NCBI RefSeq assembly: GCF_055900595.2 | Contig: NZ_CM148325.1 | Length of the DNA stretch: 64,000 bases | Direction: 5' to 3' (one strand) | Shown here: positions 2,313 through 61,300 of the stretch, in pieces | Layout of the letters: each line of letters starts with the position of its first letter | How positions within the stretch are numbered: the stretch's first letter is position 1 | Notes under the pieces: generated by a model | What the model was told of the DNA's origin: nothing | Database searches by the model: none | Seen by the model: only the letters and a program-made list of their open reading frames with translations | Made by a program: the position numbers and the translations under genes

Positions 2313-3446
2313 CTACATCGGCAAGGTTTTCAACAATCCAAACGCCTCTTTCATCCGATCCTCACTGACTACAAAGGCGCGAAGCTGGTCGGCATCGTCA
2401 ACGCCGCGCGCCACCATTCCCTGGCTTTCGGTACAAATCTGCCAGCGCAAATCCCGACGCTGGGTTTCGCCTGCCAGATGCAGCGGTAATTCCGGCGTTT
2501 TGATTTTCACCAGCATCGCCGGGAGTTTCAGCGGCGTGTTATTGCCGAGAAGATTTTTTGCCAGCACCATCGCGCTAAGTTGAATCGGCTGGAGGAACGG
2601 CAATACCTGACCGTTAATTTCCGCGCAATCGCCCAGCGCATAAATATCGGCATTACTGGTTTGCAGATAACTATCGACGCAAACGCCGCGATTAATCGTC
2701 AGCCCTGCACGTCGTGCCAGGGCGGTTTCCGGGCGCAGTCCGGTGGCGGCAATTACCGCATCCACTTCGATGCTGCGCTGGCGGTCCAGCGTTGCCAGAA
2801 TGCCAGAATCCGTTTTTTCCAGCCCCTGCAACTGAGATTTCAACAGCAGATGAACGCCCATCTCCGTCAACCGATGCTGTAAGCGACTGCTTACTTCCGG
2901 TGGCATTAACGACGCCAGAATACTGGCAGCGTTGTCGATTAGCGTGACCGCTTTGCCTGCCCGACAAAAATCCATCGCCAGTTCGCTACCAATCAAACCA
3001 CCGCCTACAATCAACACCCGTCGGGCATCCCTCAGTTGTGTTTCACAGGCGCGATACTCTTGCTGACTATTTAACGTCAGCATTAACTCACGCCCAGGCA
3101 CCGGCGGGACAAAGGCGTTGGCACCGGTTGCCAGCACTAGCTTGTCGTATTGCCACTGATTATTCTGGCTTTTCACCACATGGGCTTCGGCATCGATATC
3201 CGTCACCCAGGTGTGCGGAAACAGGCGCAGATTAAACTGCTCGGCAAATTCACCCGCCGTCTGGCGGGTAAGGTCGTCGGCACGTTGCCCCTGACTGATC
3301 ACATGGCTAAGATCAGGTTTGTTGTACTCATCCATGCTGTCGGCGGCAATCAGGGTCAATGGAATACCGGTATCCTGTTTACGAATATTTTTCACCAGTT
3401 GGCGGGCGGCGAAGCCTGAACCAATGATCACAATGCCGTTGCTCAT
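2313..3446 (-). CDS. norW: NADH:flavorubredoxin reductase
   Basis: 377-aa ORF with N-terminal FAD/NAD Rossmann motif ([10 protein letters not shown]), overlaps norV stop by 4 nt. Confidence 0.93.
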
Positions 3447-54595: not shown

Positions 54596-55154
54596 AATAA
54601 AGTTCCTCTAATGGTAGAGTAATATGGTGTATACGGAAACATAAAAATGTTTAATTGTTGTGAAAGTAATTGCAAACAGATGTCCTACTTTTATCCAATA
54701 TTTATATGGAAAAGGATAATGCTTAAATCTGTTTTTTTAATTATCGATGTGGTCTGGAGAGGCAACTGTCAAAAATCGCTCATACGAAACTAATGATTAG
54801 CAGAATAAGATCTATGAAAGAATATATTGCTATATGAAGTTTATTTTTATGGGGTGAAAAGTAACAGATATCATAATGATGCGAAAACTCTTCAGCTAAT
54901 GTAATAAAGTTATATTATTAGATACAAAATCATTACAAACTATCATTGAATCGATGGTAACTATAAATAGTGCTAAGTATTAGCATTTGCTTGTTGACTG
55001 AGAGTATCGACTTTGTGAATGGAAGCGGTGTCGGGTTTTATGTCGCAGGTAATGACGACCCAGGATGAATGAGAACGCATAAAAATCTGTTATTTACATC
55101 ATAAGATCATCATGTTTATTGCGTGGTTTATAAGTATTGTTATTGCATACTCAA

Positions 55155-55230
55155 GGCCCTTTAGCTCAGTGGTTAGAGCAGACGACTCATAATCGCCTGG
55201 TCGCTGGTTCAAGTCCAGCAAGGGCCACCA
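55155..55230 (+). tRNA. ileY: tRNA-Ile2 (CAT anticodon, lysidine-type)
   Basis: 76-nt GGCCCTTTAGCTCAGTGGTTAGAGCAGACGACTCATAATCGCCTGGTCGCTGGTTCAAGTCCAGCAAGGGCCACCA; identity as Ile2 rather than Met inferred from genomic position. Confidence 0.85.
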
Positions 55231-56054
55231 AATCAGCATTCACGTATCAGGAAGAGTTAAGGGTACAAGGGGTACTCGATGGCGGTCTATATTTCACGAC
55301 TAACGCCATTTCAAGGAAGAAGTGTGGTGGGTGGTTTCGAATGAGGGCTGGTGTTTTGGTACGTGGCACGCCACTGCAATGTATTTATCCATCAGTACTC
55401 ATTCAAAAGTACCTGGAAAAAATGCCCGCTATGCCAAGCGGGCAAATTGCTTACATGTGGAATTAAGTAATTAACGATAAAGCCAGAGTATTATCATTTA
55501 TTATACCCATTCATTTAATCAGGTTAATTACTCAAATCACTGAACTATTCTCTGTTCGCTCACTTATGCTGAGTGAGTACCACGACCAATGTATGTAGAA
55601 CAATGCCGTAGAGTAAGGATGAAATGTCTCTGCCACGCCTTAAACATCTACTACTGACTAGAACCGCCGTCGCATGCAGAAGAGTCTTGTGAGCGTTACA
55701 GGAGTCTGGCTTTGCTCATTAATCAACGCTATTTAGATATAAATTTCTAATACTCGAAAAACGATTTTCACAAATAAATTATAACGGGTGGTTTTTATCA
55801 TACAGCGAAATAACCTTTTGTTTATTAAATTTAACATTCCTGTGCTAAATTAATTAAAAGTACCATGTGTAGCATATGAAGCTGTTAATGCCAGCAATTG
55901 TCTCAAATGAGCGATTTTTTATAGTGACAAACAATAATAACATTAAAAATAGTCATGTAGACATTAACTGAGGAAAAGACAATGTTAGTTAGTAATTAAC
56001 ACTAGCACATTTATAAATAGTGGAAATTGTAATGAAAGAAAATCTTCTAAATCC

Positions 56055-57425
56055 ATGGAGTTACTAGCTTATAGTATTATAAAATTAATTTGTAAAGAAG
56101 CTGCCTCAGGGACGTATAACGGTGCTCTTGAAATTTTACAAAAAATGATGTCTGAATGTAAATATCATGAAGGCAATGCTTTTGTCATTATGGGAGCCGG
56201 AGAACAATTAAAACGTATTAAATATGATGCTAATGAAAATAAATTAAAAGTAAACAACGTACACTTTGATAATAATCAAGAGTTAGTTGCTGATGGTGAG
56301 CCTGACGTAGTATTTTTAAAAAAAACGGTGTGGGAAGACCTTCTCGTTAAACTAAAGCTGGAGAACAAAGAAAATGCGGTTTCTGAAATTAACCTGTCAT
56401 CTAATAAAAATAATGTTGATCAGTTTATTGAATGCGCTAAGAGAAATGAACAGACCCTATTCGACAATATAAGAAAAAGTGATTTTCATGTTGCTTCACT
56501 TCAGCCAGGTAGAACGCGTAGTGTTATTTCAGAAACGCCGCCAAATGACTGTATGGAATCACCTAATTTATATGAAAACCACACAGATAAGGTTTCAACT
56601 GTAACTAAAAATTCTCAGCAAGTTAAAGGTCACTATGGAGATAAGTTGAAAGAAATGCAGTTGTTCCTCAACCAGATGAGCAATGCACTTCAACAGGATT
56701 CATCTTTGTTAGAGTCAAAGGAACACACCATAGATATTCAAGAAAAAACGAATAAGTTTGTGCAGCATTTTCAGCGGGTATTATTTGATAAAAATGGAAG
56801 GTCATCAGAGTTTCTACTTAATTTTTATGAGTGTTGCTATAAGTTTTTACCAAGAGCGCAGCCTCAAGATAAAATCGATAGCTATAATTCAGCACTGCAA
56901 GCTTTTTCCATCTTTTGTTCATCTACGTTGACACATAATAATGTAGGGTTTAATTTCAAATTATTTCCAGAAGTCAAGCTGTCTGGAGGAGATCTTGAAA
57001 CGGTATTCAAATACAAAAATGGCAATTTTGTCTGGGAGATAGCCAGAATTAAAATTACTCTCCCAAAAGAAGAGGGTGGTTTATATAATTTAGGTGGATT
57101 GGACTTTAAGGGGTGCTTCTTTTCTGGACAGAACTTCAGTAACTATGATATTAAATATGTGAACTGGGGGACGTCATTGTTTGATGTTGATACTCCGTGT
57201 ATTTTTAATACGCCTGCTAACAATGAGAGTTATGAAAAATCATTAAAGCCTGTGAGCGAAAACGGTTTAAATGGAGTCTTATCTGATCGTAATAAAAAAA
57301 TAAAAATGATCACGGGCGTGGCACCATTCGATGGTATTTCATCTATGGATGATGACTTTGATGATAGTTCCTCTGAGGATGAGCCCGTTGAGAATAGTCC
57401 TGTTGTGACTAGGCCCCTTGTATAA
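56055..57425 (+). CDS. Hypothetical 456-aa protein, very AT-rich, with pentapeptide-repeat-like segment and acidic Asp/Glu/Ser-rich C-terminal tail (occupies the ypjB/ypjC-like position)
   Basis: Long uninterrupted ORF in an AT-rich island; LYNLGGLDFKGCFFSGQNFSNYDIKYVNW repeat-like block; tail SSMDDDFDDSSSEDEPVENS. Confidence 0.55.
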   Translation: MELLAYSIIKLICKEAASGTYNGALEILQKMMSECKYHEGNAFVIMGAGEQLKRIKYDANENKLKVNNVHFDNNQELVADGEPDVVFLKKTVWEDLLVKLKLENKENAVSEINLSSNKNNVDQFIECAKRNEQTLFDNIRKSDFHVASLQPGRTRSVISETPPNDCMESPNLYENHTDKVSTVTKNSQQVKGHYGDKLKEMQLFLNQMSNALQQDSSLLESKEHTIDIQEKTNKFVQHFQRVLFDKNGRSSEFLLNFYECCYKFLPRAQPQDKIDSYNSALQAFSIFCSSTLTHNNVGFNFKLFPEVKLSGGDLETVFKYKNGNFVWEIARIKITLPKEEGGLYNLGGLDFKGCFFSGQNFSNYDIKYVNWGTSLFDVDTPCIFNTPANNESYEKSLKPVSENGLNGVLSDRNKKIKMITGVAPFDGISSMDDDFDDSSSEDEPVENSPVVTRPLV

Positions 57426-57741
57426 AGTTCTAAAAGCAGTTTTCAATGATAAATAAATGGCGATTTTTACAAAGAGATAATAACGTAGATTGAAATAATA
57501 TGTATTATTGATTGAGTAAACGGGATTATTCTTCACACTGCATCCATTTTGCTGTCACTACCAAAGTAAAAGGGGCCACGCTTTCACGTAACCCCTTGAT
57601 TTATTTGATAAGTTTGCGGTGTCTGAACTGGTGCTGTAATTGGTTGAAATATTTCATCTAATGTCTGGTTCAACTTTCCTTAGCTGCCTGAAAGTTTTTT
57701 TGATATTACCCATCAATAATAGGGTGACGGTGTACCACGCC

Positions 57742-57960
57742 TGACTGATGAACTGCGTGCTCAGAGTTACCACTTCAGCGCATAACCGTGGCAGCAGGCC
57801 CGGACAGAACAAACGGCTCAGGACATTATCGGTAGGGGACGTACTGGTAGTCTGTAAACTAAACCGACTGGGGCGCAGTATGCGGCATCTTGCCGTGCTG
57901 TTGGAGGAGCTGTGAGAACGTGGTATTAACTTTCGTGCTCTGACTCTACCAATATTTGCC
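57742..57960 (+). pseudogene. pinH: Serine recombinase (Pin/Hin-type DNA invertase) fragment with in-frame TGA and no intact N- or C-terminus
   Basis: Translation ...RPGQNKRLRTLSVGDVLVVCKLNRLGRSMRHLAVLLEEL*ERGINFRALT matches the conserved GDxLVVxKLDRLGRS...ERGxxFxxLT resolvase core; TGA at 57913-57915. Confidence 0.7.
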
Positions 57961-58352
57961 CAACAATGGGGGGACGAAAGCTGTAAAAGTAAAACAATCT
58001 GCAATCTCAATATTATTGTGTGATTTTTATGTGAGCAGAAGATATTCATCAGAAACGATTATGTAAATCATTTTATTTTTCCGACGGCTTCAATGTCGAA
58101 AGAAAAGAATACGCCCGTATTTCCTGAATAGATTGACTTTTTTATCCAACCACACTTCAGCGCACTGCGTTTAAAAAATGCCTCTTTCTTATGCGGAATA
58201 TCATCATTTCATCATGATGTCTTTGATGAGCGGTGAACACAATACACTTGCGCTGTCTCTTCAGGATTAATCCCCTGGTCTGGTGCCTGTGGGCTGATGT
58301 TGCAGCAGAGCTAAGGTTGCTTAAACGCTACTCAGTATTCACTTTTCAGAGG

Positions 58353-61300
58353 ATGAAATTTATGAACAGGACCAGTCCCCATTATTGTCGTCGCTCAGTA
58401 CTTTCCTTACTGATATCTGCCTTGATATATGCTCCGCCCGGGATGGCGGCCTTTACCTCTAATGTTATTGGTGTGGTAAACGATGAGACTGTAGATGGTA
58501 GCCAAAAAGTAGATGAACGAGGTACAACAAATAACACTCATATTATCAACCACGGTTATCAGGATGTTTATGGCGGGGTATCTAATGGAAGTATTATTGA
58601 ATCTGGTGGCCGTCAATATGTATCAGCCAATGGTACTCATCAGGGGCAGGCCAATAATACAGTCATTAACGGTGGCAGCCAGACAATTCTGGACGGGGGA
58701 ATTTCCACAGGGACGATAATCCAGAGTGGCAGTCAGTATGTTTATGCAGGTGGTACCAGTAATGCAACAACGATAATAAGCGGTCGTTCAACAGTAATGG
58801 GGGGAACTGCGAATGGAACAATAATTAATGGTGGGAGCCAGTCAGTATCGAGTCAGGGGCGTGTTGACGGTACGACGATAAATATGTCCGGGCATCAGGA
58901 GATTACGCAAGGAAGTCTGGCAACGAACACAACAATAGATGGGGGGTGGCAGTATGTGGACTCAAGCAGTGTAGAAAATACTACCATTAAGAATGGAGGC
59001 GAGCAAAGAACAGTTAAGAGCCATGCGCTGAACACCACAATAGATGGTGGTCTACAGGTTGTCGATTCAAGTACCGCAGAAATAACCACCATTAAGAGTG
59101 GAGGAACGCAACAATTAAATAACAGCCAGGCTATGTTCACCACGATTGAAGGCGGAACTCAGTCTATGAATAGTAAGTCAACGGCAAAAAATACTCAGAT
59201 CTATTCTGGTGGTACGCAAATTGTTGATAACACCAGCACCTCGGATGTTATTGAAATTTATTCCGGTGGCGTGCTTGATGTTAGAGGTGGTATGGCAACA
59301 AATGTTACTCAGCACGATGGCGCGGCTTTAAAAGCAATGACTGACTGGTCGACGGTGAGCGGTACGAATAGTGAAGGTGCATTCTCTATTCACAATAACG
59401 TGGCAGACAATGTGTTGCTGGAAAACGGTGGCCATTTAGACGTATATGGTTCGGCAAACAAGACGATTATTAAAGATAAAGGAACAATGTCAGTTTTAGC
59501 GAATGCTAAAGCTGATGCGACCCGAATAGATAATGGCGGGGTTATGGATGTTGCCGGAAACGCGACCAATACCATAATTAATGGTGGCACACAGAATATA
59601 AATAATCATGGTATTGCCACGGGAACCAATATCAACAGCGGAACACAAAATATCAAGAGCGGCGGGAAAGCTGACACGACAAATATCTCCTCCGGGAGCC
59701 GGCAGGTTGTTGAGAAAGATGGTACGGCAACTGGCAGCAATATTAGCACCGGAGGCTCGCTGATTGTCTATACCGGTGGTATCGCACATGGGGTTAACCA
59801 GGAGACGGGCAGTGCTTTAGTTGCCAACACGGGCGCAGGGACTGATATTGAAGGATACAACAAGCTCTCTCACTTCACTATTACCGGAGGGGAGGCTAAT
59901 TATGTTGTGCTGGAAAATACCGGCGAACTGACGGTAGTGGCTAAAACCACGGCGAAAAATACTACCGTTGATGCCGGCGGTAAGCTGATTGTCCAGAAGG
60001 AGGCTAAAACAGATACCACCAGACTTAATAATGGTGGCGTTCTGGAGGTTCAGGACGGTGGTGAGGCTAAGCATGTTGAGCAACAATCCGGCGGCGCATT
60101 AATTGCTTCCACGACTTCCGGAACACTTATCGAAGGAACCAACAGTTATGGTGATGCTTTCTACATCAGGAATTCAGAAGCTAAAAATGTAGTGCTGGAA
60201 AACGCTGGCTCATTAACAGTCGTTACTGGTTCCCGGGCAGTTGATACGATTATTAATGCCAACGGCAAAATGGATGTTTATGGAAAAGATGTTGGCACTG
60301 TACTCAATAGTGCGGGCACCCAAACAATATATGCCAGTGCCACTTCTGATAAAGCAAATATCAAAGGTGGCAAGCAAACGGTATATGGTTTAGCCACTGA
60401 GGCAAATATCGAAAGTGGTGAACAAATTGTTGATGGTGGGTCAACAGATAAAACGCACATCAAAGGCGGCACGCAAACCGTTCAGAATTATGGTAAGGCG
60501 ATCAATACCGATATCGTCTCTGGCCTGCAACAAATTATGGCAAACGGGACAGCGGAAGGTTCCATTATTAATGGCGGTTCACAGGTAGTTAATGAGGGCG
60601 GTCTGGCTGAAAACTCGGTACTTAATGACGGCGGCACACTCGATGTGCGGGAGAAAGGCAGCGCTACGGGGATACAGCAGAGTAGCCAGGGCGCGCTGGT
60701 GGCAACCACCAGGGCGACGCGGGTCACAGGGACACGCGCTGATGGCGTCGCGTTCAGCATCGAGCAGGATGCGGCGAACAATATCCTGCTGGCAAATGGC
60801 GGCGTGTTAACCGTGGAGTCAGACACCACTTCCGCCAAAACACAGGTCAATGCGGGCGGACGGGAGATCGTCAAAACAAAAGCCACTGCGACTGGCACGA
60901 TGCTTACCGGCGGTGAACAAATCGTCGAGGGTGTGGCGAATGAGACAACGATTAACGACGGCGGAATACAAACAGTTTCGGCTAACGGTGAGGCAGTAAA
61001 AACAACGATTAATGAAGGCGGTACGCTGACAGTCAACGATAATGGCAAAGCGACAGATATCATCCAGAACAGCGGTGCCGCTCTCCAGACGAGCACGGCT
61101 AACGGTATTGAAATCAGCGGTACTCACCAGTATGGCACCTTTTCCATTGCCGGAAATTTAGCGACCAATGTGCTGCTGGAAAATGGCGGTAATTTATTGG
61201 TATTAGCAGGTACCGAAGCTCGCGATTCCACGGTTGGCAACGGTGGGGCAATGCAAAACCTGGGTCAGGACTTCGCCACAAAGGTTAATTCCGGTGGGCA

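Follow-up and report, generated by a model that had tools for sequence, protein, structure and literature searches.

Does the decayed serine recombinase fragment in front of the autotransporter gene ypjA record an abandoned phase-variation switch, or is it debris of a phage? The initial annotation of the DNA analysed here (64,000 nucleotides of an Escherichia coli-type chromosome segment, contig NZ_CM148325.1, referred to as the window) had offered both explanations. For the interval 57742-57960 it described a catalytic-core fragment of the Pin/Hin type with an in-frame stop codon and frameshifted flanks, and it proposed an ancestral invertible switch of the neighbouring adhesin gene or a phage remnant which had since been inactivated. 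Our comparisons argue for the phage. The fragment is very probably the E. coli pseudogene pinH, a non-functional internal piece of an invertase gene amid leftovers of mobile elements close to ssrA.

The ypjCB–ypjA spacer and its surroundings

The fragment is located in the spacer between ypjCB and ypjA, which is ~927-937 nt long. All features of the locus are summarized in Table 1. The left neighbour of the debris field is ypjCB, found here in the fused 456-aa form, while in K-12 MG1655 an internal stop divides the gene into ypjC and ypjB. Different ypjCB alleles differ by 3-13% and by one 105-nt indel. The right neighbour carries the RefSeq product name 'adhesin-like autotransporter YpjA/EhaD' and starts at 58353 or 58362. 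Its 5' part (58353-58999) deviates by ~18% from the alleles of K-12, O157 and FDAARGOS_1291, with the typical divergence of the E. coli core being far lower; this is a sign of either an allelic lineage of old age or diversifying selection acting on the passenger domain. Alongside stands the tmRNA gene ssrA, known as a hot spot of integration, which accounts for the presence of debris in the spacer. Only ~160 nt (63036-63195) separate ypjA from the 3' end of ssrA. The 22-kb prophage CP4-57, which in K-12 sits between these two genes, is missing from the window, so that the ssrA site is unoccupied here.

Table 1. Coordinates and supporting evidence of the features at the ypjCB–ypjA–ssrA locus (window positions).
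Feature	Position	Strand	Evidence or remark
tRNA-Ile(CAU) ileY	55155-55230		
ypjCB (DUF5507+DUF5508), intact, 456 aa	56055-57425	+	Pfam DUF5508 E=6e-143, DUF5507 E=9e-65; RefSeq name ypjCB
64-bp terminator-bearing arm (part of attP type)	57544-57607	.	resembles the end abutting the ssrA 3' end in Fels-2-like P2-family prophages
Decayed ssrA 3'-end copy (second pseudo-ssrA, cf. K-12 psaA)	57608-57630	-	K-12 allele and contiguity with Franconibacter attR
Distal (attR-side) arm of CP4-57-family island	57631-57700	.	82% to the arm adjoining cbtA in MEI3O-23
IS3 scrap: left terminal inverted repeat (57701-57718) fused to internal IS3 nt 531-626 (OrfB fragment)	57701-57798	+	blastn 81% over 97 nt
pin', core of the probable pinH pseudogene: codons ~43-91 of a Din-family serine invertase, then weak tail to codon ~101	57799-57971	+	Pfam, tblastn, nucleotide alignment, Mu Gin match
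Autotransporter upstream leader, paralogous to the ycgV leader, conserved	57982-58352	+	89.5% over 351 nt
ypjA/ehaD, AIDA-type autotransporter adhesin, intact, 1560 aa	58353-63035	+	Pfam AIDA repeats E=5e-140, Pertactin, Autotransporter beta-domain E=3e-45
ssrA 3' flank with terminator hairpin	63045-63195	-	in K-12, CP4-57 and psaA stand between this flank and ssrA
ssrA (tmRNA)	63196-63557	-	ARAGORN; Rfam RF00023, 291 bits

The invertase fragment and its identity with pinH

A catalytic-core fragment of a serine recombinase was present far beyond chance. On the frame quoted in the initial annotation, the Pfam Resolvase domain (PF00239) was matched with E=5.2e-11, covering only positions 43-100 of the 145 positions of the profile. 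TBLASTN with two intact prophage invertases from E. coli genomes yielded 38/53 identities (72%, E=1e-22) at 57787-57945, and at the DNA level the same two genes matched 57799-57935 with 84% and 80% identity. Mu Gin (PDB 3uj3/4m6f) was aligned via residues 42-91 with E=3e-14. The DNA firmly derived from an invertase gene comprises 57799-57944, followed by a 4-nt deletion at 57944/57945 and a weak continuation to ~57971 (18/27 nt in a gapped nucleotide alignment). Approximately 50-59 of the 185-197 codons survived, about one third of the gene. The reported in-frame TGA was found at 57913-57915, where K-12 carries TGC and the intact genes CGC, and the reported distance of ~390 bp to the autotransporter start was correct for the gene start given above.

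All close intact relatives of the fragment are tail-fibre invertases of P2-like, Fels-2-like, Mu-like, e14-like and P1/P7 phages. At the DNA level, the highest identity (84%) was observed for a prophage with genes for baseplate, tail fibre and tail-fibre assembly; other relatives were found in P2-like prophages, where the invertase gene is flanked by those for tail-fibre assembly and for the sheath, in Fels-2 and SEN8, and in P1/P7 as Cin. Phage invertases of the Din family flip segments of tail-fibre genes in temperate phages. Comparing the fragment with members of this family (Mu Gin, P1/P7 Cin, e14 Pin, the enzymes of Fels-2 and other P2-like phages, Salmonella Hin), 72-76% amino acid identity was observed over positions ~42-91, including the (D/N)RLGRS region. 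Unlike these invertases, it possesses neither the catalytic serine nor the E-helix/HTH half, and it is accompanied neither by crossover sites nor by an invertible segment. The nucleophilic serine of Din invertases is found at about residue 9-10 within the motif YxRVSTxxQ. The N-terminal catalytic part with this serine is not contained in the fragment, with homology starting at codon ~43 and IS3-derived DNA located upstream. The C-terminal helix-turn-helix domain is absent as well, with no similarity past codon ~101 and the autotransporter leader beginning at 57982. Finally, the TGA and the 4-nt deletion leave no uninterrupted reading frame in the fragment. Judged from these features, it is a non-functional internal piece of a phage-type serine invertase, and no activity would be expected of it today.

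An invertase fragment at this locus is already known as an annotated pseudogene. Positions 2783065-2783304 of MG1655 (NC_000913.3), flanked by ypjA and ypjB, are annotated as the pseudogene pinH (b2648) and map onto window positions 57785-58024. In K-12 DH1, O157:H7 and others, the RefSeq pseudogene label at the site reads recombinase family protein, incomplete, with missing N- and C-terminus. The order ypjA; pinH; ypjB; ypjC; ileY is also given in a published K-12 gene list (PMC10652928). The position of the fragment between ypjA and ypjB/C-ileY and its truncation junctions are those of E. coli pinH. Compared to pinH of MG1655, locus, truncated architecture and junctions are shared at 89% nucleotide identity over the fragment, and the differences are allelic only, as for the TGA which is TGC in K-12.

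Using a coverage of at least 80% as cutoff, the whole ~937-nt spacer was found in 3002 of 5426 complete E. coli genomes, and the segment 57700-57995 in 3042 genomes. About 54 of the 3056 genomes with the locus did not contain the full compact spacer, and a rare strain among these may still carry a longer invertase copy. Furthermore, the alleles of four deeply diverged lineages (window, K-12, O157:H7, FDAARGOS_1291) were aligned. All four possess the same junctions between IS3 and pin and between pin and leader as well as the 4-nt deletion, hence the truncations are older than the divergence of the lineages. The stop codon was lineage-specific, with TGA in the window and TGC in the other three. 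Between lineages, pin' diverged by 1-12% (6-12% in the deep comparisons) and the leader by 0-4.6% (3-5% in the deep comparisons). A drifting pin' next to a conserved leader is the pattern expected for neutral decay adjoining a presumably constrained regulatory region.

Flanking junctions, crossover sites and alternative readings

The sequence upstream of the fragment was found to be of different origin. The first ~57 nt of the interval initially assigned to the recombinase (57742-57798) belong to the IS3 transposase gene (OrfB, 81% nucleotide identity), and the peptide 'LMNCVLRVTTSAHNRGS' quoted for it is an off-frame reading of IS3. In the frame of IS3, the peptide GVPRLTDELRAQSYHFSA is encoded, compared to GAPRLTDELRAQGYPFNV in IS3 OrfB. 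The frameshifted flanks described before are thus only partly correct, the upstream one being IS3 and not invertase. The left inverted repeat of IS3 is matched at 18/18 positions in the K-12 allele and at 16/18 in the window, and a TTACCC microhomology is found at the internal deletion of the IS3 scrap. As the junction to the invertase fragment is internal to IS3, it represents a deletion scar and not an insertion end.

On the other side, the invertase similarity stops at ~57971, ~10 nt short of the leader edge at 57982. For the leader, 89.5% identity was observed between 57982-58332 and the ymgJ/ycgV upstream region (positions 3001-3350 of the ycgV locus used for comparison). The ycgV leader is situated in the locus ymgI-ymgJ-ycgV-minE, with a match in 5321 of 5426 E. 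coli genomes, and no invertase was found near ycgV in that locus. Since the fragment ends at the edge of a leader which ycgV possesses without an invertase, the adjacency of pin' and ypjA is a secondary junction. The ypjA/ycgV leader is shared and conserved and is predicted to be a regulatory module. Small annotated ORFs are included in its ~350 nt.

Intact homologs are provided with pix-type crossover sites (TTCTCCCAAACCAACGTTTATGAAAA), one of them ~60 nt upstream of the ATG of the invertase gene and its inverted partner ~1.8 kb away in the tail-fibre genes. With the core pattern AAACCNNGGTTT and one mismatch allowed at most, no match was obtained in 55000-64000. For full 26-bp sites of the hix/gix/pix type, queries were taken from the intact homologs and supplemented with hixL and gixL; the best hits in the same interval showed 9/26 mismatches, equal to shuffled sequence, and no pair of inverted sites bracketing a segment was detected there. 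Searching for inverted or direct repeats which link the fragment to ypjA or ssrA revealed only short ones at chance level and the internal repeats of the autotransporter. In intact homologs, the proximal crossover site goes with the first third of the gene, and in the window this third is replaced by IS3 debris. In gin and hin, the Fis-dependent recombinational enhancer is contained in the early codons of the invertase gene; as the first 42 codons are absent from the fragment, such an enhancer would be missing as well.

DNA invertases do control surface antigens elsewhere, as Hin does for flagellin, and a serine recombinase fragment ~390 bp upstream of an adhesin gene on the same strand could suggest a dedicated Hin-like invertible promoter switch which once controlled ypjA. 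Proximity and orientation are, however, all that speaks for such a switch. The interval carries no crossover sites beyond chance, the fragment is bounded by IS3 debris at its 5' end and at its 3' end by a leader which is shared with ycgV, a gene with no invertase in its vicinity, the close intact relatives all reside in tail-fibre inversion cassettes, and the leader is conserved while the fragment drifts as neutral sequence does. We consider the switch highly improbable, and this half of the initial proposal is not supported. Thereby, a tempting invertase-driven phase switch for the YpjA/EhaD adhesin is removed; the significance is small, a pseudogene having been confirmed as a pseudogene. The match to the general Resolvase domain and the adjoining insertion sequence scrap might also be taken as signs of a transposon or plasmid resolvase of the Tn3/gamma-delta TnpR type. 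Gamma-delta resolvase, however, matched the fragment with an E-value of about 2e-3 only, compared to the far better value for Mu Gin, which identifies the fragment as Din-invertase-type and not resolvase-type. Its catalytic-domain segment (the DRLGRS region) is closer to invertases than to resolvases, the identity to Fels-2, Cin and other prophage invertases amounts to 72-76% for amino acids and up to 84% for DNA, and the adjoining element is IS3. IS3 is an element with a DDE transposase and without a resolvase. A resolvase as source is therefore exceedingly improbable.

Apart from being a pseudogene, the region might be functional in another way, encoding a small protein (a 131-codon ORF on the minus strand at 57654-58049 or a 55-codon ORF on the plus strand) or a regulatory RNA for ypjA. 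The minus-strand ORF is open in all four diverged lineages, and the neighbouring 75 nt at 57626-57700 are strikingly conserved, with at least 95% identity in 3053 of the 3056 genomes and 0-2.9% divergence among the four lineages; the segments around them, including the coding sequences of ypjCB and ypjA, are 10-40% diverged. Nevertheless, the minus-strand ORF changes ~20% of its residues at ~10% nucleotide divergence, which looks neutral, its C-terminus differs between lineages by a frameshift, and it carries no annotation in MG1655. It was rejected as a gene despite staying open. The plus-strand ORF is closed by the lineage-specific TGA. The conserved 75 nt fall outside the invertase fragment and fold with a z-score of only -1.35, and scanning them for promoters and terminators gave no convincing call. 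Rfam identified only ssrA and tRNA in 55000-64000 and no family in the spacer; a BjrC68 match (E=0.21) was discarded, as it covers only the terminator hairpin. Such a function of the region is very unlikely, and we retain the reading as the decaying pseudogene pinH.

The fossil ssrA junction and the origin of the debris

Upstream of the IS3 scrap, the spacer contains the traces of an ssrA attachment site. The 64-bp arm at 57544-57607 shares 94% identity with the end at which a prophage of E. coli VG12A2 meets ssrA and 90.6% with positions 20-83 of Fels-2 (NC_010463), which are annotated as 'Part of prophage attP'. It is also found in SopEPhi, RE2010, 500465-1 and Cartapus (90-94% identity) and forms a strong terminator-like hairpin on the minus strand, the strand of ssrA. 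For the adjoining ssrA copy, the K-12 allele reads TGGTGGGCTGGCAGTGACTGAA, compared to TGGTGGAGCTGGCGGGAGTTGAA for the 3' end of ssrA (reverse complement) and TGGTGGGCTGGCGGAGTCTGAA for the CP4-57 attR/psaA region. Aligning the window's own ssrA 3' end to 57500-57800 yielded a score no better than shuffles. What identifies the copy as an ssrA remnant is thus the K-12 allele, which has decayed less, together with the contiguous alignment to a Franconibacter island attR, the window allele alone being insufficient. The 23 positions of this copy (57608-57630) are hypervariable between lineages (35-41%) directly beside the conserved arm, and the window copy is more decayed than that of K-12. This second pseudo-ssrA, ~170 nt upstream of pinH in K-12, carries no annotation in MG1655.

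The segment 57568-57677 could be aligned without a break (82% over 110 nt) to the attR which a CP4-57-like island possesses in Franconibacter helveticus and which looks like a live one. The layout of 57568-57700, with terminator, partial ssrA 3' end and distal arm, is shared with the CP4-57 attR/psaA region of K-12 and with CP4-57-like islands. Unlike there, the junction in the window is a fossil: the island is gone, an IS3 scrap, pin' and ypjA stand in its place, and the ssrA fragment is decayed. A scan of contigs from other species, with the conserved arm as anchor, recovered nothing but the Franconibacter island and a contaminant contig resembling E. coli, and no less-decayed invertase was among them. 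That the pseudo-ssrA/attR junction marks the stretch of ypjA and pinH as an older, gutted island of the CP4-57 type and that the conserved 75-nt arm is functional is a combination which we regard as rather unlikely. If it were true, the arm might act, for example, as a small RNA, as a terminator or as an arm-type binding site for secondary recombination of incoming ssrA islands.

The other half of the initial proposal, an inactivated phage remnant, agrees well with the tail-fibre invertases as relatives and with the position of the fragment in the company of IS3 remains and a fossil attachment junction of ssrA. Read from left to right, the debris begins with a Fels-2-type attP arm, continues with a displaced ssrA 3' fragment, the distal arm of the CP4-57 type and an IS3 with an internal deletion, and ends with pin', to which the ypjA module is joined. 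Elements were probably integrated serially at ssrA. An older island of the CP4-57 type may have displaced the original ssrA 3' end together with its terminator. Later, its interior would have been gutted with the involvement of IS3, leaving the IS3 scrap, pin' and the ypjA module between the fossil attR and ssrA. The pin' fragment itself may stem from a prophage, or from prophage-derived cargo of an old ssrA island, which would have been gutted by deletions, some of them associated with IS3; that it stands beside ypjA would then be an accident of these deletions. The CP4-57 prophage of K-12 would have been integrated after the gutting of the older island.

That one Fels-2-like prophage had supplied the attP arm as well as pin' was considered and rejected. 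In this case, the arm would be expected downstream of the fragment, while it is found upstream. Moreover, the same E. coli phages show 92% identity for the arm and ~74% DNA identity for the invertase gene, and the best DNA match (84%) lies in a prophage type other than the Fels-2-like carriers of the arm. Judging from this order and these identities, arm and pin' probably come from different elements. The finer dissection of the spacer into named scraps illustrates serial traffic and decay at a tmRNA-gene hot spot. The strain closest to the window is E. coli Z0117EC0005, with 99.9% identity in the spacer. Its ypjA gene is truncated, and behind it lies an island encoding an HTH regulator and a pair of neighbouring tyrosine recombinases, which is another element exploiting the ssrA neighbourhood.
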